A stretch of DNA of 34,824 bases from a virus (taxonomy: Duplodnaviria > Caudoviricetes), in the IMG/VR virus record IMGVR_UViG_3300048589_001426, positions 1-34,824 of that record; one strand, given 5' to 3'. Position 1 is the first letter of the stretch. Each line of letters starts with the position of its first letter. This document shows positions 2,910-34,824 of this stretch, one piece after another. Both the position numbers and the translations under genes were made by a program. The notes under the pieces were generated by a model, which was not told the DNA's origin, made no database searches, and saw only the letters and a program-made list of their open reading frames with translations.

Positions 2910-3260
2910 ATGAGACCAGAACCCCAACCGGCTCCCGCCAAAGAGCTTACGGTTCCGGCCGCCAAAGCGCGTAGCCAACAGCCACTTTTTGCCGGCACCG
3001 TTACGGTGAGCAAGATACGAAGCCCCGAAGGTAACGCCCTTCTCGGCGACGTGACAGACGACAAGGCCCTGCGCATCGTCCACCGCGGCCATCCCATCAA
3101 GGTCGTTGTGACCGAAGAACGCTACTTGGAGCTGCTGACCTTCTGGCAGCTCTTCGAGCACCAGGAGCCCCTGCCGACTACGACAGCAGCTGAGGAGCTC
3201 GCCGCGGCCGAACAGGAAGATGTCGAGCTCGACGCGCTGGAGGCCGAAGACCGTGACTGA
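2910..3260 (+). CDS. Phd/YefM-like type II antitoxin
   Basis: LRIVHRGHPIKVVVTEERYLELL fits the Phd/YefM pattern. It has an acidic C-terminal tail and overlaps the next gene. Confidence 0.6.
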   Translation: MRPEPQPAPAKELTVPAAKARSQQPLFAGTVTVSKIRSPEGNALLGDVTDDKALRIVHRGHPIKVVVTEERYLELLTFWQLFEHQEPLPTTTAAEELAAAEQEDVELDALEAEDRD

Positions 3261-3579
3261 GCGCGCCGCCTTGCCATGGCGGTGGGCCTCCGAAGGTGCG
3301 CGACGGCGATTTCGTGGCCGTGCTCGTGCGATGGCTGCCTTTCAGCCGTTTCCGTTAGAGACCAGGCGCCGCTATCGTGAGCACGTCCTCGCGGCAATCG
3401 AGGAACTTGCGCGTTATCCCGAGGCGGCGCCGCTGACTGCGGACAAAGCGTACCGCGTGAAGACGATCGCATCGACCGGCACAGCTCAGGGCGACGTAAT
3501 TCTTTATTCGTACAGTTCGGCTGGCGTCATGATTCATGGTGTGTTTCCGTATCTACCGCCGAAGTTCTTTGGGAGCTGA
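3253..3579 (+). CDS. RelE/ParE-superfamily toxin (divergent)
   Basis: The GTG at 3253 overlaps the end of the antitoxin gene. AAIEELARYPE...YRVK...VILYS...VMIHGVF is a RelE/ParE-like layout. Confidence 0.5.
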   Translation: MTERAALPWRWASEGARRRFRGRARAMAAFQPFPLETRRRYREHVLAAIEELARYPEAAPLTADKAYRVKTIASTGTAQGDVILYSYSSAGVMIHGVFPYLPPKFFGS

Positions 3580-3634: not shown

Positions 3635-3767
3635 TCAGCCACAGGTGTCTGGCTCGAAGTGCCTTGGGACAAACATCAGAAGGCTCAGCGTGGTCTTCTC
3701 ATCGCTGAAAAGACTTCCCTCACGCAGACAGCGAACCCCCAAGTCTCACGGCCGCCGGGCGAACGAC

Positions 3768-3881
3768 AAGGCGCAGCGAAAGCCCACGTTGCTGTTGACG
3801 TTCGACGGCCCATTGTTCAGATTGGCGGCGAACACGCCGGCGTTCGTGCCATTGTTCCAGTTGCCGCCGCGGAGCAGGGCA
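3768..3881 (-). repeat. DGR template repeat (TR)
   Basis: 114-bp ungapped match to 6257-6370 with 13 mismatches, all at TR adenines on the minus strand. It reads ALLRGGNWNNGTNAGVFAANLNNGPSNVNSNVGFRCA (10 AAY codons). Confidence 0.97.
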
Positions 3882-3934: not shown

Positions 3935-4888
3935 TCATAGCAAATTCTCGAAAGAACGAAACGACAGCTCGCTCTGCGCCATCCGGCTCGGGCGGGCTCC
4001 CGAGCGTTCCAGGCGCCCTATCCGCTTGGCAAACCTCCTCTTGTTGCGGCTTAGAATCCGATAGCCGCCGTGATCGAGCACATATCCTAAAAACGGCACG
4101 GGCGCGTTACCGAGCGGCATCCGCTTGAAGTGGGGAATCGAAAGTCTCAGCTCGCTTTCGACGTGCTGGGTCACGGCGTCGGCCGCGTCGAGGACCACCG
4201 ACTTATTGCGGCCCCCGAGGACCATGTCGTCCATGTAACGGAAGTAGAAGCCGCCTTTGAGCTGCTCGGTGGCGACACGGTCGGCGGAGACGAGATAAAA
4301 GTTGGCAAACACCTGGGACGTCAGGTTTCCGATCGGGATGCCGTAGCCGCGAGAGGCATACTCGGCATGGCTTTGCAGGAGTGAAGCCAGAAGAGGCTCG
4401 AGACTCCGGTCTGGCAGCGCCTCGAAAAGCTTGGCGAGCAGCACGTCATGCCGGATCGAGGCAAAGTATTGCGCGACGTCGAGCTTGATGACGAAGCGGT
4501 CTTTGCCATGCTCGCGAAGCACCGCAAGAAGATCCGTCGCGGCCTTCCGGTTGCCTTTGCCGTGACGGCAGGCATACACGCTCTCCGGTACCAGGGGATC
4601 GAGGATCGGCTCGATGATCTCGTGGATGGCTGTATGGACGACGCGGTCCATAAAGGGAGCCGCCAAGACGCGACGCGACTTGGGGTCTCTCACCAAGAGT
4701 TCCCGGTAGCGTCCCCAGCGATACTGGCCTGCTAGGATCTTGCCGCGCATGGCGACGAGCTTCTCGCCGTGGGCAAACATGGCGCGCTGATAGCCGGTCG
4801 AGGCACGCTTGCCGCGTGCGCAGAGCTGGAAAGCCCGTGCAAGGTTCTCGAACGCCGCCACCTCGTCAAGGAGCGTGGTCACGGGCAT
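3935..4888 (-). CDS. DGR reverse transcriptase (317 aa from ATG 4888)
   Basis: Motifs RDPKSRRVLAAPFMDRVVH, KLDVAQYFASIRH, the DGR-type GIPIGNLTSQ, catalytic RYMDD and FLGY. It has no maturase or endonuclease domain. Confidence 0.96.
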   Translation of the reverse strand: MPVTTLLDEVAAFENLARAFQLCARGKRASTGYQRAMFAHGEKLVAMRGKILAGQYRWGRYRELLVRDPKSRRVLAAPFMDRVVHTAIHEIIEPILDPLVPESVYACRHGKGNRKAATDLLAVLREHGKDRFVIKLDVAQYFASIRHDVLLAKLFEALPDRSLEPLLASLLQSHAEYASRGYGIPIGNLTSQVFANFYLVSADRVATEQLKGGFYFRYMDDMVLGGRNKSVVLDAADAVTQHVESELRLSIPHFKRMPLGNAPVPFLGYVLDHGGYRILSRNKRRFAKRIGRLERSGARPSRMAQSELSFRSFENLL

Positions 4889-5243
4889 CCGCCTCGAACT
4901 TCCCAAAGCCACCGATCTGCCGACCGACCTCGGCGGTCAGCTCGCTCAGCTCGGCATAGCCGGTGGTCGGAATGATCTGCATGTCATGCGAAAGCTGAAG
5001 CAGAATCCGGATCTCGTCCAAGTGCTCCGAGGCGCTCTCCAAGGAGGCGGACCGCCGCGAGTCTTTGCCGCCACTTTTGGCAAGGCTAGCGACGCGGACG
5101 GCTGACGTCAGGTCGATCGCCCGGTCCTCCAGGCGGCGGCCAAGTGTCGGGCGGTAGTGTTTGGGAAAGCTGCGTGTTCTTCCAAATACCATGACGGTCA
5201 ATTGGTAGCTGTCGGCGAGGATCTTGGGGCTTCTAGCGCTCAT
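4866..5243 (-). CDS. avd: DGR accessory variability determinant (Avd, four-helix bundle)
   Basis: 125 aa with FPKHYRPTLGRRL, LDEIRILLQLSHDM and EVGRQIGGF (Avd E-x-G-R/K-x-x-G-G motif). It overlaps the RT start. Confidence 0.9.
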   Translation of the reverse strand: MSARSPKILADSYQLTVMVFGRTRSFPKHYRPTLGRRLEDRAIDLTSAVRVASLAKSGGKDSRRSASLESASEHLDEIRILLQLSHDMQIIPTTGYAELSELTAEVGRQIGGFGKFEADARDHAP

Positions 5244-5952
5244 GGCGTCGCCCCCGGCCGTCGCGGTCCTGACCACGCTCGATTTTCTTGATCAAAGACG
5301 CAAACGCGGGCAGCACATCGCCCTCCAGAAAGGCGACGTCGCTGGCCCAACGCAGCCTCGCATCAGGATCACTGTAAACGAGCGCCAACGCCGCACCGAT
5401 CAGTCCTCGGGAGCGGTCATAGTAGGCGCGCTTTTCTGCGCCATACGAATAGAACCCGGAGCCGAGCTGCTCGAGAATCGCGCCCTGCAGATCACGCAGT
5501 CGATGGCCGTAGCGGAGCTTGTCGGCGTCCCCCCACATCGGCATCCGGAAAGCCTCCAGGCACAGCCGGTAGCAGGCAAGCCCGTCGAGGTTCTTCCCAG
5601 AGGAGGCCCGCCTGGGGCGCGGCGGGCGTTCGCTGCCTGTGGCCTCCGGCGACTTCGGAAGCGTTTCCGAAATTTCCGAAATTTCCGAAATTTCCGAAGT
5701 TTCGGAAATGGCCTGAGGCTCCCTTTCCGTGAGACCGCTGGCCTGCCGAAAGGCCTCCAGCGAGGCGAGGTCGACATACCAGCGCTTGCCGACACGCAGC
5801 GCCTTGATCTGTCTGGCCTTGATGTAGTTGAGGACCATGCGCTCAGAAACACCGAGAGATTTCGCGGCAGTATCGACGCTTACCTCGAGCTGGGATTGGG
5901 GCTGGCTGCGGCGTGGCATCGCGGGCGGCATGATCCTTGATTGGGAGCGCAA
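5233..5952 (-). CDS. Excisionase-like HTH fused through a repeat linker to a four-helix-bundle (IVP/Avd-like) domain; start may be an ATG near 5931 or 5919
   Basis: N-terminus VSVDTAAKSLGVSERMVLNYIKARQIKALRVGKRWYV is HTH_17-like. The linker is ISETSEISEISEISE. C-terminus LDGLACYRL...LRDLQGAILEQLGSG...EKRAYYDRSRG resembles 23S-IVP four-helix bundles. It overlaps the avd start. Confidence 0.7.
   Translation of the reverse strand: MRSQSRIMPPAMPRRSQPQSQLEVSVDTAAKSLGVSERMVLNYIKARQIKALRVGKRWYVDLASLEAFRQASGLTEREPQAISETSEISEISEISETLPKSPEATGSERPPRPRRASSGKNLDGLACYRLCLEAFRMPMWGDADKLRYGHRLRDLQGAILEQLGSGFYSYGAEKRAYYDRSRGLIGAALALVYSDPDARLRWASDVAFLEGDVLPAFASLIKKIERGQDRDGRGRRHER
5664..5708. repeat. 9-bp repeat array 1 (intragenic)
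   Basis: TTTCCGAAA x3, then TTTCCGAAG and TTTCGGAAA. Confidence 0.9.
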
Positions 5953-6008
5953 AGCACCCTAGCAGGGGATATCCTCACTCAAAAGGAGAAAATTCCTGAC
6001 TGGCATAA

Positions 6009-6076
6009 TTTCCGAAATTTCGGAAATTTCCGAAGTTGCGGAAGTTGCGGAAGTGACGTTTCCGAAGTTTCGGAAA
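6009..6076. repeat. 9-bp repeat array 2 (intergenic)
   Basis: TTTCCGAAA TTTCGGAAA TTTCCGAAG TTGCGGAAG TTGCGGAAG tgacg TTTCCGAAG TTTCGGAAA. Confidence 0.9.
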
Positions 6077-6147
6077 TGCTGCCTGATGGAGAAATAGACA
6101 TAATAAATTAAATCAACAACTTACGCGAATGTGCTGTTTCGGCACAA

Positions 6148-6174
6148 TTTCCGAAATTTCGGAAATTTCCGAAA
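6148..6174. repeat. 9-bp repeat array 3 (intergenic, next to the VR hairpin)
   Basis: TTTCCGAAA TTTCGGAAA TTTCCGAAA. Confidence 0.9.
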
Positions 6175-6182
6175 TGGAGCCG

Positions 6183-6201
6183 CTGGGGGCTACGCCCCCA
6201 G
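6183..6201 (-). promoter_or_regulatory. DGR target-recognition hairpin/cruciform downstream of the VR
   Basis: Perfect 8-bp stem CTGGGGGC/GCCCCCAG with a 3-nt loop (GTA on the coding strand), about 40 bp after the target stop codon. Confidence 0.8.
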
Positions 6202-6240
6202 ACCCCAAAACCAAGGACCAAGGTCCAAGAAACCAAGGAC

Positions 6241-9200
6241 TTAGTGGGCATTGGAGAAGGCGCAGCGAAAGCCCACGGAGCTGCTGACGTCCGACGGCCC
6301 ATAGTACAGAGTGGCGGCGAACACGCCGGCGATCGGGCCATAGTACCAGAGGCCGCCGCGGAGCAGGGCATTGCCACTTGCGCTGCATCCATAATACTGA
6401 CCGGCCCCGTTTGAGGAGGTCAGAGAGCCGCTTGGGCCAGCGACTAGTTTCTCCCAGTCGGTGACGTTGGCGTTGTTCCACTCGACCCATCCGGTGGTGT
6501 ACCAGCTCGTCGTATCGCATTGCGCATCCGTCCACTCCCAGACGTTGCCGGCCATGTCCCAGATGACATTGCCGTTGCTGAGGACGTGGGTGCGCATTTG
6601 CGACTTGTTGGCACCACCAGCCGAGTAGGCTGTGCTGTAGCCGTTGCTGGTACCGTAGTAGCCGTAGTCGGTGCTGTTGTTGGCGTAGGTGCCGGGGCCA
6701 CGCAGGGCGCAGGAGTTGTTGCTGGCATCGGAGAGTGCAAGGGTCAGCGTGCAGCTCGCAAGCGAGGGGTCCGCCACCGCGGCCAAGGCGCTAGCCGGAG
6801 AGTTGTCGGAGTGGCCGGTGGCAAGCTGGATGCCGGCTGCAGAGTCGATGTCGTTGATGGCGGTTGCCTCGATGTTGCGAGCGATGGTCATCCACTCGCC
6901 TTCGTTGACAAGGTGGCCGCCGACCCGCTTGCAGGCGCTTTGAGCCTCATACCAGGAGACGTTGACCCAGGGGGTGCCCGTGGCGGTCGAGACGGCCTGG
7001 CCGGTGGCGCCATCCTTCTTAGCCTCGTACTTCATGACGCAGAAGCTTGCGTTGGTGAAGCTCGCATTGCCCGGCACCAGGATATAGCCCGTGGGGCAGG
7101 TGAGACTGGCTGCCGGCAAATTGGTGAGCTGCGAGCCGTCGACGGCCGGAAGCCGGGCACTACCGTCGAGCTGGACGACTTTGTTGGCGGTGGTGCCGAC
7201 ATCGAGTGTCGCGCTGGTGCCAAGGCCGAGGCTGGTGCGCGCGGTCGCGGCGACCAGGCCGGTGGCACCGCCGTCCCATTTCATGCGGTCCGTGTAGGCG
7301 GTGTCCCAGTTGGCGGAGTTATCGGTCACGACGCTGTAGGTCCCCGCACCGGTGCGGGCCATCAGGCCGTTTGAGCCGAAGTCGCCGTTCATCACGGCAC
7401 CGGCGCTGTCGACCGTCGCTGTCGTGACGACGCTCGTGAGCTGCGAGCCGTCGACGGCGGGCAGCTTGGCAGTGCCGTCGAGTTGCACGACCTTGTTGGC
7501 AGTGGTGCCGACGTCCAACGTGGCGGCCGTGCCGAGGCCTAGGCTGGTGCGGGCCGTCGCAGCGACAAGGCCGGTAGAGCCGCCGTCCCACTGCAGACGC
7601 TCACTGTAGGCTGTATTCCAGTTGCTGGTGCTGAGAGCAAGCCACGACGTCGTGCTGCCGTCGGTCGTGAGCACCTTGCCGGAGTTGCCCGTCTGTGCGG
7701 GCAGAAGATTCGTCAGAGCTCCATCGGCCGTCGTCGCGCCGGTGCCGCCCTTGGCTACGGCCACGGCCGCACTGAGGTTGGCGGGGCTGAGGCTGGTAAG
7801 GGCCGAGCCGTCGACGGCTGGCAGCTTGCCCGTGCCATCGAGCTGCACCAGTTGATTGGCGGCGGTGCCGGCATCGAGCGTAGCCGATGTGCCGAGGCCG
7901 AGGCTCGTTCGGCCGGTGGCGGCGACGAGGCCGGCAGAGCCGCCGTCCCACTTCAGGCGGTCGGTGTGCGCCGTGTCCCAGTTGGCCGCGTTGAGAGCAC
8001 TCCACGAGGCCGCCGTGCCGTCGGTCGAGAGAACCTTGCCGGAGTTGCCGGTCTGGGCGGGTAGCAGGTTGGTGAGTGCCGCGCTGGCGGTGGCGGCCCC
8101 GGTGCCGCCGCGGGAGATCGAAAGCTGCGCCTCGGAGCTCATCACGCCGCTGCCGTCGTTGACGAGCACGTGGGAAGCCGTGCCGGAAGCCAGCTTGGCG
8201 CGGGCGATACCCGCGCCTGTTTTGATCTCCGAGTCGTCGATGCCCGTGATCGTGTTGTCGTCGGCGCTGATCGTCTTGTTGGTCAGGGTGTCTCCCGAGC
8301 TGGCGGTGGTTGCTGTCACCCAAGACAAGGCGCCCGAGCCATTTGTGCTGAGCAGCTGGCCGGCCGTGCCGTCTGCGGCTGGCAGAGTCCAGATCTGATT
8401 GCTTGCGACCGCGTCGGGCGCCTTGAGGCCGACGTAGTTGCTCTCGAGCCCGTCACGCTCGGTAAAGCGCAGCTCGCCGGTTTGTCCCGCGCCGCTGCCA
8501 TAGCCGCCGAGCGTCACGGCGGCCTGCAGGTCCGTGGTGAGCGAGCCGACCGGCAGGACGGTGGCGGCCGTGATGGTCGACTGCTTGGCGTTGAGCTGGG
8601 CTTGCGGGTCTGAGGTCAGGCCCGCCAAATAGTTGAAGTGCGTGTTGTCGACTGCTCCCGTGCCGATCTTGCCGGCATCGATGTTGGCCGAGGCGCTGAT
8701 GTCGGCGTTTGCGATGGTGCCGTCGGCTATGGTGGTCGACGTGACGTCGCCAGCGTTCAGGCCGCCGCTGGCAATGTCGTTCATGAGCTTGAAGCTGCCG
8801 GTGGCGTTGTCCCACTTGACGACCTTCTGGTCATTGCTGGCATCGAGCGCATCCGTGAAGGCCTTGCCGCGGATCTTGGTGACCACTGTGGCATTCTGCG
8901 TGCCGCTGACGTCACCGCTCAGCGTGCCGGAGAAGCTCTGTGCTTGTTTGATGGCGGTGATGTCACCCCCTGCGTCGACTTCGACGAAGGCGCCGGTCGC
9001 TTTGATCACGCCGGGCGTATTGGCCGCGGCGGCCGGAAGAGTGGCCTTGAGGCGGCCGTTGTCGTCAAACGTCACGGTGCTGCCGTCGACCGGCACCCGG
9101 GCTGCCAGCGGTACGACAGTAAAGCGCTGCCGGGGATAGGTGCGCGCGTTGGTCTGGTCGGTGATCTCGATATAGGCGGTCGTTTCGGCCGAGGGGAAAA

Positions 9201-9483
9201 TCGTCGTGTAGTCGTCGACCGGCAGATCGAGAGTAAGCTGGAAAACTCCGTCCTGAAGGGTCTCGGAGGGGGCGACGACCGGCTCGCCGAGCAGCGGATT
9301 GCCGCCGGTCTCGCTTCGGAAGAAATTCACGGCAAGATCGACCGGCCCCGACAACGGTGCACCGGTCGCATCAGTCAGGCGTCCGCCGTAGGACAACGGG
9401 AACGGGCCTGCGCTAGCAGCCAGCGGCGCCAGGGCGAGCCACAGCCCGGTCAGAGCCGAGGAGAGTTGGTGGTGCTTGGGCAT
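6241..9483 (-). CDS. DGR target: secreted fibre/adhesin-like protein with a C-terminal CLec (FGE-sulfatase-like) variable domain
   Basis: Signal peptide ending ASA-G, then LSYGGRLTDATGAPL. The stalk is G/T/A/S-rich with long repeats. The C-terminal domain has CPTGYILVPG, FCVMKYEAK, PWVNVSWYEAQSAC, DMAGNVWEW and RGG.W...GFRC. Confidence 0.9.
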   Translation of the reverse strand: MPKHHQLSSALTGLWLALAPLAASAGPFPLSYGGRLTDATGAPLSGPVDLAVNFFRSETGGNPLLGEPVVAPSETLQDGVFQLTLDLPVDDYTTIFPSAETTAYIEITDQTNARTYPRQRFTVVPLAARVPVDGSTVTFDDNGRLKATLPAAAANTPGVIKATGAFVEVDAGGDITAIKQAQSFSGTLSGDVSGTQNATVVTKIRGKAFTDALDASNDQKVVKWDNATGSFKLMNDIASGGLNAGDVTSTTIADGTIANADISASANIDAGKIGTGAVDNTHFNYLAGLTSDPQAQLNAKQSTITAATVLPVGSLTTDLQAAVTLGGYGSGAGQTGELRFTERDGLESNYVGLKAPDAVASNQIWTLPAADGTAGQLLSTNGSGALSWVTATTASSGDTLTNKTISADDNTITGIDDSEIKTGAGIARAKLASGTASHVLVNDGSGVMSSEAQLSISRGGTGAATASAALTNLLPAQTGNSGKVLSTDGTAASWSALNAANWDTAHTDRLKWDGGSAGLVAATGRTSLGLGTSATLDAGTAANQLVQLDGTGKLPAVDGSALTSLSPANLSAAVAVAKGGTGATTADGALTNLLPAQTGNSGKVLTTDGSTTSWLALSTSNWNTAYSERLQWDGGSTGLVAATARTSLGLGTAATLDVGTTANKVVQLDGTAKLPAVDGSQLTSVVTTATVDSAGAVMNGDFGSNGLMARTGAGTYSVVTDNSANWDTAYTDRMKWDGGATGLVAATARTSLGLGTSATLDVGTTANKVVQLDGSARLPAVDGSQLTNLPAASLTCPTGYILVPGNASFTNASFCVMKYEAKKDGATGQAVSTATGTPWVNVSWYEAQSACKRVGGHLVNEGEWMTIARNIEATAINDIDSAAGIQLATGHSDNSPASALAAVADPSLASCTLTLALSDASNNSCALRGPGTYANNSTDYGYYGTSNGYSTAYSAGGANKSQMRTHVLSNGNVIWDMAGNVWEWTDAQCDTTSWYTTGWVEWNNANVTDWEKLVAGPSGSLTSSNGAGQYYGCSASGNALLRGGLWYYGPIAGVFAATLYYGPSDVSSSVGFRCAFSNAH
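6257..6370 (-). repeat. DGR variable repeat (VR) at the 3' end of the target gene
   Basis: Encodes ALLRGGLWYYGPIAGVFAATLYYGPSDVSSSVGFRCA. 101 of 114 bases are identical to the TR. Confidence 0.97.
7125..8110 (-). repeat. Three imperfect intragenic repeats in the fibre stalk
   Basis: The unit NW(D/N)TA...WDGG..GLVAAT.RTSLGLGT.ATLD.GT.AN..VQLDG...LPAVDGS occurs three times. The anchor GCCGTCGACGGC lies at 7135, 7447 and 7807 (spacing 312 and 360 bp). Confidence 0.85.
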
Positions 9484-9797: not shown

Positions 9798-10148
9798 GTG
9801 GCTCGCTTTACCAAAGAGCGACTTGAACAATTCCAGGACGTCGACGAGCTGCTGAATGCGCGCCTGACGCCAGAGGAGCGAGCGGAAAGCAGGCTCGAAG
9901 CTTTGCAAGAGCTTGCCGATTTGAAGGCGATGCAGGAAGAGCTGAGCAAGACTGTGGTTGAGTTCATGGCGACTGAAAAAATCGGGGTCCCCATGCTCAC
10001 CTCGAGACTTGGAACAAGTACTCGGCAGGCTTATAAGATCGTCAATGCGGAGGCGAATCTCACGCTAGCCAGTCTTGTGGAGCTGGGGCGTGTGTTAGGC
10101 AGGCGTCCCCGGATTGTTTGGGATCGGCGCGAGGATGAACAAGAGTAA
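9798..10148 (+). CDS. XRE-family HTH protein (HigA-like antitoxin)
   Basis: LTSRLGTSTRQAYKIVNAEANLTLASLVELGRVLG. RBS AAGGAG upstream of the GTG start. Confidence 0.75.
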   Translation: MARFTKERLEQFQDVDELLNARLTPEERAESRLEALQELADLKAMQEELSKTVVEFMATEKIGVPMLTSRLGTSTRQAYKIVNAEANLTLASLVELGRVLGRRPRIVWDRREDEQE

Positions 10149-10227
10149 GCAAGCGGCTCCCTGCGTCCGACCCCCGTCTTTCTCTGCAAAAAGACGCCGC
10201 ACCCAGCTGGTTAGATTGCGACAAAGA

Positions 10228-10518
10228 CTAACGATTTGACGACCGCTGCGCTGCTGTCGATGACCTTCGGTTTTCCGCGTTTTCTTGCCGTCTGCTGCCT
10301 GGCTGCTGCCTACGCGCTCGGGCGGTTCGACCGCTTGAGCCGCTTGCTTTGAGCAGCGGCGCGAGTTGGCTCAATGCTAGCACTTCGATCCCAAGCACCT
10401 GGCCGTTCTTGTCAAGGTCGAACAAGATGCCCGGGCGCAGCTCGACCGTGGATGCGACCTTGCCGGTGCGGAGCTTGATGTATGCGACGTCTAGCTTGGC
10501 GTCTTTCGTCACCTTCAC
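10228..10518 (-). CDS. DUF2283-family protein (putative antitoxin)
   Basis: DVAYIKL...TVEL...ILFDLDKNGQVLGIEVL is the DUF2283 signature. Confidence 0.8.
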   Translation of the reverse strand: MKVTKDAKLDVAYIKLRTGKVASTVELRPGILFDLDKNGQVLGIEVLALSQLAPLLKASGSSGRTARARRQQPGSRRQENAENRRSSTAAQRSSNR

Positions 10519-10733
10519 GGGCTCAGTCCTTCCAGTAAGCTGCGACGCACCTCAGTGCGCGAGCTGCGACGCTCCTTGAGGCGGAGTGCAGCGTGCGGGG
10601 AGACTTCAAGAGGTGCTGGAGTCATTGCCTAAAAACTCCACCAGCAAGAAATGGGGAAGCGCGCTCTGCGTCGGCAGAACGTCTACGGCGAGCGCACCTG
10701 TGTGCCGACCTTTGGCTAAGCACCCCTTTGTCT

Positions 10734-11294
10734 TTAAAGAGCGAGGCGGTTGAAGAGGTCATTGCTTTCGATCCGCTGTGGCAGATGGACGGTCTGATCA
10801 GGGTCGAGATGATCAGCGATACGTGCCAGCTCATTCAGATCGAGCCCTAGACGGCGGGCATAGATCACCCGGAGACGAAACTGCCGGTCGATGCTGAGAT
10901 GGCGGGTCGCGTTGTTGACTGATTCAAACTTGTTGTATTCCTTGACGTCCATGTTGAGGGCACTGGCGGTTTCTTGCTGGGTCATGCCGGCAACGATGCG
11001 AAGAAACCTCAGTTGCCGCTTGTCGAGAGCGTGCGCATCGTTGATGAGCTGTGTGGCAATGCCGAGCCTGAGATTCTGCTCGAGCCCTGGGTAGAAATAG
11101 AGCGCCTCACAGGTGTCGCACTCGACAAAGGGCGCTTTCACCAGGAGGACCATGCCGAGCCCTTCGATGGTGTGGGGGATGTTTTCTCGGGTCGTGACCT
11201 TCCACTTGCCTTTGCAGTCACACGTGGCGTGGGCGTCTTCGAACTCATCCTGGAGACGGCGTTGGTCTAGGCGCTGCAGGTTACCAAAAGTCAT
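10734..11294 (-). CDS. MqsA/YgiT-like zinc-finger plus XRE HTH antitoxin
   Basis: CDC...ECDTCE cysteine pairs followed by LRFLRIVAGMTQQETASALNM. Confidence 0.75.
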   Translation of the reverse strand: MTFGNLQRLDQRRLQDEFEDAHATCDCKGKWKVTTRENIPHTIEGLGMVLLVKAPFVECDTCEALYFYPGLEQNLRLGIATQLINDAHALDKRQLRFLRIVAGMTQQETASALNMDVKEYNKFESVNNATRHLSIDRQFRLRVIYARRLGLDLNELARIADHLDPDQTVHLPQRIESNDLFNRLAL

Positions 11295-11730
11295 ATGTCA
11301 CCTCCGGAAGCAGATCGGGATTTATGATTTCCCGCCATGGTCGATAGGCGGTGACGACGATGTGCTTTCTTGCTCCTTGGCGGACAACAACTCTCACGAC
11401 CACGAGCGGCTCAATATGGTCGACTGCTTTATCGCCCCCTGTCGTGTCGAGCTCGGTCCAGGGGAAGTCTCTAAATTTTCCCTCGAGGGCAATCTCAGGC
11501 AGGGTGCCGTTCATGCGTGACTGGTCTTCGTTGAGTTGACCGGTGGCGATGACGGCTGCGATTTGCTCGTCGCCGAGGTTGAGTCGGATCATGTTGGGAT
11601 CCTTCTCGGCGCTCTTCACAAGATGGTTTCGCCTGACGAGAAAGCTGTCGTGAAAACTCTTCTCCGTGTGACAGCGGGGCTTGAGAGCTTCGTGGAAGTC
11701 TTTGAGCCTTCTCTTGGTGAAGTCACTCAT
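11281..11730 (-). CDS. DUF4258-like putative toxin
   Basis: Lies upstream of and overlaps the MqsA-like gene. C-terminus PLVVVRVV...HIVVTAYRP. ATG at 11730 is preferred. Confidence 0.5.
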   Translation of the reverse strand: MSDFTKRRLKDFHEALKPRCHTEKSFHDSFLVRRNHLVKSAEKDPNMIRLNLGDEQIAAVIATGQLNEDQSRMNGTLPEIALEGKFRDFPWTELDTTGGDKAVDHIEPLVVVRVVVRQGARKHIVVTAYRPWREIINPDLLPEVTYDFW

Positions 11731-11774
11731 GCAGCTGATCGTTCCTCTCTTCACGCAAGCCTTCCGTATTATAC

Positions 11775-11790
11775 TCACACTAATGTGTGA
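11775..11790. promoter_or_regulatory. Palindromic operator candidate
   Basis: TCACAC-TAAT-GTGTGA in AT-rich DNA upstream of the 11730 start. Confidence 0.4.
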
Positions 11791-11969
11791 AGTACACACC
11801 TTATCGTCAGAATAACGAGTAACTTAACCGCGTATATATATGCCTGAATTAACAGATATTTTTAGGCTATCGGGGCATGGCTTCTGATGTTCGCCATCGC
11901 CAGCTCGGCCGCCCAGCCTGGCAGCCAGACCGATCCCTCCGAAGAAGCGTCTCGAGCAGGGCGTTGGTA

Positions 11970-12503
11970 TCAGCGGCGCTCTCTGGGGAGGCCTCCCCGC
12001 ATGTCGTCGATCACCTCGTCGACGGATTGGCCGGGATCGAGGGGCTCGACCTTTCCCGCCCACTCGGCGAGGCGGTCGTTCTTTGCGGCCTCGATCTCCT
12101 CTGCGAGCGTGTACTTGTCGCCGAGCTGGGCTGTTTCGCGCTCTCTGGCGCGTCTTAGACGGATGTACTCGGTGACGGCCATCTTGATGAAGCTCTGGTA
12201 GCCGATGTTGAGGCGCCTTGCCTCTTCCTTGGCGTTGGCAAGCAGCGACTCTGGCCACTTCATGTAGACGGCCACCAGGGGCTCGTCGCTTTTGGGCCGG
12301 CCGCCGCCGTGACGCTTGGCGAGGTTTTCTTTCACCTGTCGGTCGATCTCGTGGATCTCAGAGCGCTCGTCGCCTTGGGGGGCCACCCAATCGGCTTGTC
12401 GATGGGCTCGAAAGTCCTCCTCAAGGGTTTGGGCCTCACTGAGGTCCGCTTTTTTCTGGTTAACGTCGTTTACCATCATCTCTCCAGCGGGCTCTATAGG
12501 CAC
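11970..12503 (-). CDS. CopG/BrnA-like ribbon-helix-helix protein (putative orphan antitoxin)
   Basis: GGRPKSDEPLVAVYMKWPESLLANAKEEARRLNIGYQSFIKMAV. Confidence 0.6.
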   Translation of the reverse strand: MPIEPAGEMMVNDVNQKKADLSEAQTLEEDFRAHRQADWVAPQGDERSEIHEIDRQVKENLAKRHGGGRPKSDEPLVAVYMKWPESLLANAKEEARRLNIGYQSFIKMAVTEYIRLRRARERETAQLGDKYTLAEEIEAAKNDRLAEWAGKVEPLDPGQSVDEVIDDMRGGLPRERR

Positions 12504-12563
12504 CGACGCTGACTTGTTTGGGTGGTAGCTGCGTAGCGCCGTCGGCCCCTCTTGGGGGAGGGG

Positions 12564-12908
12564 TTAGTCGTCGGCGTTGTAGGTTGGCAGTCGATTGCTT
12601 GGGTAGACGCGCAGATTGGCTCTCCGGTTGTCGATGACGTGGATCAGGTAGAGGCGCGTTGCCTCAGGCGCCTGCGTGCATTTGAAAAATATGCGGTAGT
12701 GGCCTTTTCCAAAGGGCCAGCTTTGATCTCCCGTGACGGGGTGGACTCCCGGCTTGGTCGGATTGGTCTTGATAAACTCCAGCACCGCCTCCAGCTCGTC
12801 GGCAAACCAGAAGAGCGCGGCGCCGTCTTTGTCTTGCTTATCGAGAAAGTCGAGGATCTCTTCCAGGTCGCTCAGGTAGCTTGGCAGCTCGACGAGCTGA
12901 GTTTTCAC
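12564..12908 (-). CDS. ParE/RelE-family toxin
   Basis: DLEEILDFL...LEFIKTNP...HYRIFF...LYLIHVIDNRR. GTGA overlap with the antitoxin stop. Confidence 0.75.
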   Translation of the reverse strand: MKTQLVELPSYLSDLEEILDFLDKQDKDGAALFWFADELEAVLEFIKTNPTKPGVHPVTGDQSWPFGKGHYRIFFKCTQAPEATRLYLIHVIDNRRANLRVYPSNRLPTYNADD

Positions 12909-13183
12909 GTGGCGGCGTCCTTCTTTGCCCGCGCACGGGCGCGAAGGCGCTCGGCGACCTCGCCGGGCTCGACGGCGCTGCCTTGTCCTTCGAGCGCCTG
13001 CGACATACCGAGCAGCCGGCGTTGCAGGGAGAGGATTTCGTTTTGCATGGAAGCGTAGAGGTCTTCACGCATGAGGATGAAGGCTTCACCGGAGCGACGG
13101 TTGATGCGGATGGGCTCTGTGGCGGCGAGGTCGAGATAGTCTTTCAGCTCGGCTCTGAGCTTTCGGGCGTTGGTTGTTTCCAT
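12905..13183 (-). CDS. Phd/YefM-family antitoxin
   Basis: METTNARKLRAELKDYLDLAATEPIRINRRSGEAFILMREDLY. RBS GGAGG upstream. Confidence 0.85.
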   Translation of the reverse strand: METTNARKLRAELKDYLDLAATEPIRINRRSGEAFILMREDLYASMQNEILSLQRRLLGMSQALEGQGSAVEPGEVAERLRARARAKKDAAT

Positions 13184-13232
13184 GGGTCGGGCACCTCCGG
13201 GGGGCATTTCTTTGCTCTTTGAAGGCTAGCAT

Positions 13233-33032: not shown

Positions 33033-34055
33033 ATGCCGCGTGCTCCGTCGAAGCAGCTCCAGAATTCTCCATTCAAGGATGTTGAATTCAACATGATGCA
33101 ACTATCTGAGTTGCTTGGCATTTCCCGCGCATCACTGTACCAGATGGAGAAGGCAAAGGTCATCGAAGGGCGCACCGTCAGGTCCGGAGCTTCCTCGAAG
33201 AAGGTTTTTGGCTGGTCTGATTTACAGCGAATCGTCAAGCATCAGCCGGACAAGGTGACTCGTCCTCGCGATTTGAAGGTAAAGGTCTTCGCGAATCTTA
33301 AGGGTGGAGTTGGCAAGTCATCTCTTGCGTCTCAAGTGGCAATGCGCGCCTCTGCTTCCGGCACGAGGACCTTGCTTATCGATTTGGATCCTCAGGCGCA
33401 TGCAAGTCTAGCGCTGGGATTTGACAATCTTTCGGAAGAAATTCCTACGATCCTTAATTGCATGTTTGCGCAGAGCAACGGCAAGAAAGCGTCTATCGAC
33501 GACGTCATACAAATGGTGACTCCCTTCTTGGGAATCATTCCGTCCAGCCTAGCCATGTCGTCGCTCGAGGTGAAGCTTCAGCAGGATTACAAGGGAGCGG
33601 AGAAGCTTAAGAAGGTTCTTGAGCAAATAAGAGACGACTGGGATCTGATCGTAATCGACACCAATCCCTCCGCATCTCTCTTGAACATCAATGCACTTCT
33701 CGCTGCTGACGAACTCTGTGTCGTCTGTGCGACTGACTTTCTCTCAGTTTCTGGCCTTCGTCAGTTGTTCCAGATTTTGAAGGATCTCCAAGAGGATTTC
33801 GATGATTTTGGGCCGGAGGTTCGAGTCATTCCGAATCTATTTGATGTGCGGGAGGCGATAGCTCAGGAAGCCTTAGGGGTACTTCGACAGCAGTACGGAA
33901 AGTTTTGTTGCAACACGGTAGTTCGAAAAAATGTTGATCTCAAAGAAGCGCAGAAGCTGGCGCAGGCTGTCTGGCTGTATAAGAAGAGGTCGCCAGCGGC
34001 TGAGGATATCGCGGCTCTTACTCATGAACTGATCGTCGAGGAGATGCGGAAATGA
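33033..34055 (+). CDS. parA: Type Ia plasmid partition ATPase with an N-terminal HTH
   Basis: HTH QLSELLGISRASLYQME, deviant Walker A NLKGGVGKS, LIDLDPQAHAS and IVIDTNPS. RBS GGAGG. Confidence 0.93.
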   Translation: MPRAPSKQLQNSPFKDVEFNMMQLSELLGISRASLYQMEKAKVIEGRTVRSGASSKKVFGWSDLQRIVKHQPDKVTRPRDLKVKVFANLKGGVGKSSLASQVAMRASASGTRTLLIDLDPQAHASLALGFDNLSEEIPTILNCMFAQSNGKKASIDDVIQMVTPFLGIIPSSLAMSSLEVKLQQDYKGAEKLKKVLEQIRDDWDLIVIDTNPSASLLNINALLAADELCVVCATDFLSVSGLRQLFQILKDLQEDFDDFGPEVRVIPNLFDVREAIAQEALGVLRQQYGKFCCNTVVRKNVDLKEAQKLAQAVWLYKKRSPAAEDIAALTHELIVEEMRK

Positions 34056-34682: not shown

Positions 34683-34824
34683 CTCGTTACGGGCCGACTC
34701 GTTACGGGCCGACTCGTTACGGGCCGACTCGTTACGGGCCGACTCGTTACGGGCCGACTCGTTACGGGCCGACTCGTTACGGGCCGACTCGTTACGGGCC
34801 GACTCGTTACGGGCCGACTCGTTA
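34683..34824. repeat. Perfect 15-bp tandem array (centromere or iteron candidate), truncated by the window end
   Basis: CTCGTTACGGGCCGA x9 plus 7 bp, with no spacers. Confidence 0.92.

Follow-up and report, generated by a model that had tools for sequence, protein, structure and literature searches.

Accessory genes of DGRs

Avd is a pentamer that binds the DGR reverse transcriptase (RT) and the spacer RNA. According to the accessible part of the survey by Wu et al. 2018 (PMC5758913), the described DGR accessory genes are Avd, HRDC, MSL, CH1 and four tentative ones, PAG1-4, and include no sequence-specific DNA-binding component; nucleic-acid binding by Avd shows no detectable sequence specificity, and CH1 is an acidic protein of 160-169 residues that occurs only where avd is absent. 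For the BPP-1 DGR, the consulted portions of two reports state that targeting requires only the IMH and a hairpin (PMC3240598), and that the RT is without a DNA-binding subdomain (bioRxiv 10.1101/2023.10.23.563531). Outside DGRs, BldC assembles as cooperative multimers on 9-bp direct repeats, head to tail and beside AATT tracts (PMC5859096, in the excerpts available).

The locus analyzed here carries a gene between its target gene and avd which encodes an N-terminal HTH, a linker and a C-terminal four-helix bundle, and which we call the HTH-bundle gene. It is a real accessory gene with a matching cis-element, which marks a lineage of DGRs and is apparently undescribed so far. The family has no HRDC or MutS-type Pfam match and, judged by the accessible text of Wu et al. 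2018, lies outside their four accessory classes, CH1 being set apart by its description; their supplement (PMC5758913), as far as it was accessible, gave no match for excisionase, Bdellovibrio or Bacteriovorax. An earlier note on this DNA had not recognized the gene as a described DGR component. We found neither an HTH-bundle DGR gene nor such arrays in the open literature searched, which included the available parts of PMC5758913, PMC3240598, PMC12875486 (Unlu et al. 2026), PMC8934634 and PMC8867640; large metagenomic surveys may list them.

Layout of the cassette

The window, by which we mean the whole stretch of 34,824 nucleotides that was analyzed, belongs to a virus record and contains genes for terminase, portal, capsid and integrase. 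Its DGR is real, complete and working, with a DGR-type RT, avd, a lectin-type target and an A-specific pair of template repeat (TR) and variable repeat (VR) (Table 1): 13 of the 14 mismatches between TR and VR fall on TR adenines, and four different VRs are found among five related phage contigs.

Table 1. Features of the DGR cassette in the window
Feature	Positions	Strand	Evidence and remarks
Template repeat (TR)	3765..3881	-	TR/VR comparison
DGR reverse transcriptase (RT)	3935..4888	-	ATG 4888; phrog_1423 E 5e-72; in-frame GTG 4912 is an alternative start
avd	4866..5243	-	start ATG 5243; phrog_3206 Avd match E 1e-16
HTH-linker-four-helix-bundle gene	5233..5931	-	232 aa; in-frame TTG 5952 would give 239 aa
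IVP/Avd-fold four-helix bundle	5263..5601	-	predicted model and structure comparison
In-gene array	5664..5709	.	five 9-bp units in the disordered linker; L002-L004 have one unit less
Xis/BldC-like winged HTH (Pfam HTH_17)	5743..5892	-	Pfam, profile, predicted fold
Intergenic array 2	6007..6078	.	seven 9-bp units
Intergenic array 1	6137..6175	.	three to four 9-bp units; begins 79 nt behind VR
GC-rich hairpin	6183..6201	-	3' of VR; 8-bp stem, 3-nt loop; seen in sequence and fold
Four short CTTGG repeats	6211..6237	-	after the target stop codon, before the hairpin; 7-8 bp period
Target gene	6241..9483	-	1080 aa; C-terminal FGE-sulfatase-type (C-type-lectin) domain
Variable repeat (VR)	6254..6370	-	TR/VR comparison

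The frame of the HTH-bundle gene is open from 5952 to 5233 on the minus strand. Its start is likely the ATG at 5931 rather than the TTG at 5952, since database relatives and the L004 orthologue begin there. The overlaps that the earlier note had pointed out are real, measuring 11 nt between the gene and avd and 23 nt between avd and the RT, and 4-nt gene overlaps are seen in seven relatives; by their arrangement, the three genes may be translationally coupled. A sigma-70 scan found no promoter for the HTH-bundle gene, and the promoter-like hexamers referred to below were located by eye. The CTTGG repeats directly after the target stop codon are found across many family loci, distant members included.

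The target begins with what resembles a signal peptide and contains three long internal repeats (312-360 nt); upstream of the lectin domain it is very different from the L004 copy. From its sequence it looks like a host-type surface adhesin more than a tail fibre, and it may resemble the adhesins of predators. Small toxin-antitoxin-like and HTH genes flank the DGR (2910-3579, 9798-13207); similar small modules are inserted between array and HTH-bundle gene in L027, L085 and L091, and between avd and RT in L029. Elsewhere in the window, a GH108 lysozyme gene followed by a patatin-like phospholipase gene (1134-2587) is a possible lysis pair, and a perfect 15-bp tandem repeat (34683-34824, 9.5 copies), which runs off the window end behind a ParA gene (33033-34055) and a 202-aa gene, might be the partition or replication site of a plasmid-like prophage.

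The HTH domain

That the N-terminus is an excisionase-like HTH, as had been proposed, is confirmed by a match to Pfam HTH_17 (E 1.7e-9; 38.2 bits vs. a cut-off of 27), besides which Pfam found nothing in the window protein. The nearest solved relative is Xis of mycobacteriophage Pukovnik (4j2n; profile E 4.6e-7, rmsd ~1 Å). In the predicted model, a disordered linker separates the winged HTH from the bundle.

The four-helix bundle

The C-terminal 110 residues were modelled as a four-helix bundle with pLDDT >90, using a deep alignment of 70 sequences (mean pLDDT 85.8 overall); this model supersedes an earlier one from four sequences, which was poor and tied with unrelated bundles. Among 48,161 chains, the best structural match was the IVP protein Xcc0516 (2GSC; Z 13.9, rmsd 1.9, 103 aligned residues, 16% identity), followed by Avd (4dwl; Z 12.4, rmsd 1.9, 97 aligned, 7% identity) and by the Avd of the DGR complex 8ub7 (Z 11.9). 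The best unrelated bundle reached Z 11.3, a modest margin, as helical bundles easily score high. The Atlas model of the bundle also agrees with the IVP fold (TM 0.86). The four-helix bundle previously claimed for the C-terminus thus holds in the predicted model, and the check for an unrelated C-terminal fold, which would have told against it, did not do so, as IVP/Avd-like structures took the top three ranks.

A Foldseek search returned no hit with an E value of 0.001 or lower. In sequence, the bundle is remote from both groups; the profiles bAvd (PF22296), NF033474, PF05635 and TIGR02436 did not match the domain, and bAvd and 23S_rRNA_IVP matched neither the window protein nor any of its 109 relatives. 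Nothing was recovered either when the bundle was compared with Avd by pairwise BLAST or when its sequence was searched in the PDB. Comparison of profiles gave a weak link to Avd (E 1.7e-4, probability 49.5) and a weak one to IVP proteins (E 1.2e-3, probability 19, from a six-row alignment). Given top structural matches to IVP and Avd with only weak profile links to both, the modelled bundle is a third family of the IVP/Avd fold, separate from a plain copy of avd. Of the proposal that it is a second Avd, the part concerning the fold is therefore upheld and the part concerning an avd copy is not: the acidic and basic residues of a D-x-x-R pattern common in the Avd of this lineage align with G and L of the bundle. 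Its own invariant or nearly invariant residues are G157, G159, K167, Y171, R175, G179 and L213. Like Avd, the bundle is basic (median pI 9.3 vs. 9.6).

By its modelled fold the bundle may form a ring and may contact Avd or the RT. A complex prediction with four Avd and one bundle domain scored 0.00, which bears neither way on co-assembly.

Distribution and co-inheritance with DGRs

A profile of the C-terminal domain retrieved 109 clusters among 1.84 billion representatives, one of which (P0097) is a clear false match. The HTH is present in 80 of the 109, and in 79 of the 80 clusters in which 60 or more residues precede the bundle. Word-index searches recovered only 3 and 7 relatives, and in one search 14 of the 18 viral matches were to the HTH only and were ignored. 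A GTDB scan yielded six loci, whose records are labelled Oligoflexaceae, Oligoflexales, Bdellovibrionaceae or unclassified proteobacteria; searches by phylum found the domain in 9 of 131 genomes and in 16 of 401, and overlapping samples by class in 18 of 238, 13 of 331 and 8 of 201. The family is one of Oligoflexia/Bdellovibrionota-type DGRs. A similar 205-aa Atlas cluster named mostly Myxococcota is a lead only.

We compared 60 loci, a count that includes the window and omits the near-copies L004 and L030 as well as L191, which was rejected as a false match (E 2e-4, without HTH, avd or RT). The co-occurrence with DGRs that the earlier note had proposed to survey is very high: 58 of the 60 loci have avd on the same strand, no more than 200 nt farther downstream, and an RT is present in 54. 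The two exceptions are L078, a broken copy, and L088, in which avd-RT-TR is inverted beside the gene. The tree distances of bundle, Avd and RT correlate with each other (rho 0.79, 0.77 and 0.88 over 28 loci), and an RT tree separates 33 family RTs from 30 others (support 0.96, root unknown). Five genomes (G378, G585, G001, G532, G684) contain two to four distinct cassettes, every one of which has an HTH-bundle gene of its own, and G585 also has decayed cassette copies. Extra TR/VR-like copies downstream of the RT in L198 and L075 may be a store of old templates; those in L075 are not clean TR/VR pairs, and no arrays were found at its VR-like copies.

HTH_17 being an excisionase family and the window phage having an integrase, the gene could be a passenger of mobile elements, i.e. 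an excisionase or recombination factor without a role in the DGR. This is highly improbable and largely refuted by the company the gene keeps: it stays beside avd-RT in bacterial genome contigs whose RTs are diverse (identity median 44%, lowest 27%), its sole clear copy without avd (L078) is broken, and the broken bundles of L181 and L190 are paired with a truncated avd and an absent RT.

As controls, we fetched 40 of the 80 Avd matches without a bundle match; two proved to be family members, leaving 38. HRDC is present in 19 of these 38 loci, directly before avd in all 17 inspected, and in none of the family loci (0 of 35 in the discovery set, 0 of 25 held out). The HTH-bundle gene fills the slot that HRDC holds in neighboring DGRs, and the two do not co-occur in the sampled loci. 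One control DGR, L164, which carries neither HRDC nor the HTH-bundle gene, has between VR and avd a 160-aa gene without Pfam match, perhaps another accessory gene.

Repeat arrays behind the VR

In the window a near-palindromic 9-mer forms three arrays, of which two lie between VR and HTH-bundle gene and one lies in the linker; a pattern allowing one mismatch found no other clusters of it in the 34.8 kb. The family motif, TT(T/G)C(C/G)G, dominates the upstream region in distant loci too, at spacings mostly of 9, 10 and 20-21 bp. The units vary freely in order and orientation across loci and the half-site is kept; in several lineages arrays also recur within the gene's own linker. Among phage strains, 5 of 91 array columns are variable, compared to 43 of 146 in the neighboring sequence.

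We defined the motif on the discovery set and fetched the held-out loci after it had been fixed. Of the discovery loci with verified TR/VR pairs, 14 of 17 have at least five matches in the 450 nt after the VR, as do 10 of 14 loci of the held-out set and 1 of 27 control DGRs, where palindromes count twice, some loci with an incomplete TR/VR pair are uncounted and related loci are not independent events. These counts support the link between the gene and 9-bp arrays that had been suggested earlier. Arrays were absent from HRDC loci, and in the 20 control loci inspected no other 6-mer was enriched after the VR.

Some loci depart from this arrangement. In L032, L086, L196 and L197 a diversified VR is followed by 0-3 sites, and the array of L072 begins ~540 nt from the VR, closer to the HTH-bundle gene. 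L195 and L199 have five sites in the target coding region within 300 nt before the VR, a weak signal to which codons may contribute; the sites inside the target of L198 belong to the other motif type and may be due to codon chance. Searches with the TR in eight genomes found no remote target, and yielded two extra VRs at contig ends, each followed by an array.

Recognition helix and array motif

In loci with at least five sites and a parsed helix, the motif type follows the recognition helix: the share of TTG is 0.85-1.0 with R-x-x-R-H helices (7 loci) and 0-0.29, i.e. TTT arrays, with other helices (25 loci). The helix pattern missed several loci, including L067, which has a mixed array, and L083 and L085, whose arrays are of the TTG type. 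In L196 and L197 the helix is without the usual arginine, and there are no array sites. Forcing six TTG loci together on the RT tree was rejected (p-AU 0.004, for a group named after earlier trees had been seen), which indicates at least two joint changes of helix and motif, or else that the pair moved as one.

Mainly because the motif type changes with the recognition helix, we consider it quite probable that the HTH reads the arrays. By analogy with BldC, it would bind the half-sites cooperatively, about one protein per 9-10 bp, which we judge to be just as probable.

A different explanation for the arrays is that they are DNA or RNA structures, or repeats travelling with the bundle genes, while the HTH binds elsewhere and the bundle serves as a second Avd-like RNA chaperone. 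Alternating units do make perfect palindromes, array 2 folds at -22.5 kcal/mol as DNA (a raw value, without shuffle control), and the basic character shared with Avd would suit a chaperone. Nevertheless we regard this as improbable, since the array type tracks the recognition helix rather than the bundle or the RT, as exemplified by L077, which has TTG arrays and an R-x-x-R-H helix yet is placed among TTT loci by the bundle tree (support 0.845) as well as by the RT tree, and since a structural role fits poorly with units that vary in order and orientation and retain the half-site.

Possible action at the target or on transcription

Our favored reading is a lineage-wide accessory gene whose HTH would sit on the arrays, where the Avd-like bundle would oligomerize and help the RT-Avd-RNA complex to deliver mutated cDNA. 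Among the points in its favor are the gene's position in the HRDC slot, the Avd fold it carries and, from BPP-1, an RT without a DNA-binding subdomain; we hold it to be evenly poised between right and wrong. If the bundle assembled into a ring, as Avd and IVP proteins do, one array could be gripped by several HTHs on their flexible linkers, and the bound protein would act at the target, either holding the RT-Avd-RNA complex near the VR or bending the DNA beside the hairpin; it would thereby do the job that HRDC may do in neighboring DGRs. A more specific form, in which the sequence-specific HTH on an Avd/IVP ring marks the target as an address in the DNA and brings the RT-Avd-RNA complex to it, is possible and can be put forward only tentatively.

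Alternatively, the protein could be a transcription regulator, which would occupy the arrays upstream of and within the gene, loop the promoter between them via the oligomeric bundle and so set the level of avd-RT-TR RNA and with it the mutation rate. The coupling of HTH and arrays fits this equally well, and the HTH-bundle gene is the first in its operon. In the window, the in-gene array and intergenic array 2 flank a promoter-like stretch, and linkers elsewhere carry arrays as well, as operators might. Across loci, arrays lie 30-150 nt upstream of promoter-like hexamers (by eye), where operators would be expected. There are precedents in the accessible parts of two studies: BldC controls transcription (PMC5859096), and Gp36 of phage D29 represses via direct repeats (PMC12266134). 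All the same, we consider regulation the less likely of the two functions, though a serious contender.

What tells against regulation and for action at the target are mainly natural rearrangements. In L085, L087 and L091, foreign genes separate the target from the HTH-bundle gene, and the array keeps to the target side; in L087, however, the inserted gene ends 31 nt before the HTH-bundle gene, so that the array may still mark the operon promoter and the insert may be co-transcribed. In L088 the gene faces the inverted avd-RT-TR, with no array before avd, and gene and arrays are still next to the VR. The sites within the target just before the VR in L195 and L199 point the same way, weakly. Furthermore, the promoter-like hexamers of L071, L072 and L083 are ~100 nt or more from the array (by eye), and a regulator has no obvious need for an Avd-fold domain or for the slot of HRDC.

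Besides the operator-like positions, several observations speak against a role at the target. L006 has diversified one of two targets (17 of 17 changes at A), and only one site lies behind it. The loci with few or no sites and the displaced array of L072 have been mentioned, as has BPP-1, for whose targeting the IMH and hairpin suffice. The gene is broken in L178, by an insertion sequence in the linker, and in L135, beside avd and RT that look intact.

Both readings, which the earlier note had raised as tethering of the RT-Avd-RNA complex and as regulation of the cassette, concern questions of some reach, namely how DGR cDNA finds its target and gets into it, and what turns DGRs on or off. With a conserved protein, likely sites and two natural specificity variants at hand, targeting and regulation are directly testable. 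If the HTH-bundle protein acts in targeting, it would be the first known protein link between the DGR RT complex and target DNA, and array and protein would form a portable, re-specifiable module with at least two specificities, which could help DGR-based mutagenesis tools by increasing and steering their efficiency. Were it a regulator, it would be a dedicated mutation-rate switch.

Comparison with known systems

The HTH shares its fold with Xis/BldC/RdfS-type winged HTH proteins (Pukovnik Xis, 4J2N; BldC, 6AMA), and the geometry of the window arrays is that of BldC binding to 9-bp repeats, as given in the available text of PMC5859096. It differs from this type in being fused to a bundle and in its array units, which are near-palindromic and occur in both orientations; also, unlike for the proteins of this type, we found no link of the gene to a recombinase.

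The best structural match of the bundle is to 23S rRNA-IVP proteins (Xcc0516, 2GSC; BT_0352, 2RLD; PF05635, TIGR02436), whose NxAEG...R..F..A.GS pattern aligns with LGAG...K...Y..AR of the bundle (probability 19, six-row alignment); unlike these, the bundle is fused to an HTH and has a fixed DGR context. With Avd (BPP-1 bAvd; 4DWL, 8UB7; PF22296) it shares the four-helix fold, the basic character and a DGR gene position beside the RT, but it has a GxGYYS..K...Y..AR motif and the HTH fusion, and it accompanies a normal avd instead of replacing it. The hairpin behind the VR resembles that of the BPP-1 DGR, where it is required according to the accessible part of PMC3240598.

In gene order, the closest counterpart is the HRDC gene of architecture-C DGRs, which, in the consulted part of PMC5758913, occupies the same slot between target and avd-RT-TR in the same phyla and is likewise lineage-specific and a predicted nucleic-acid binder. 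Unlike the HTH-bundle protein, HRDC has an unrelated fold and its loci are without arrays, and in the sampled loci the two are mutually exclusive.
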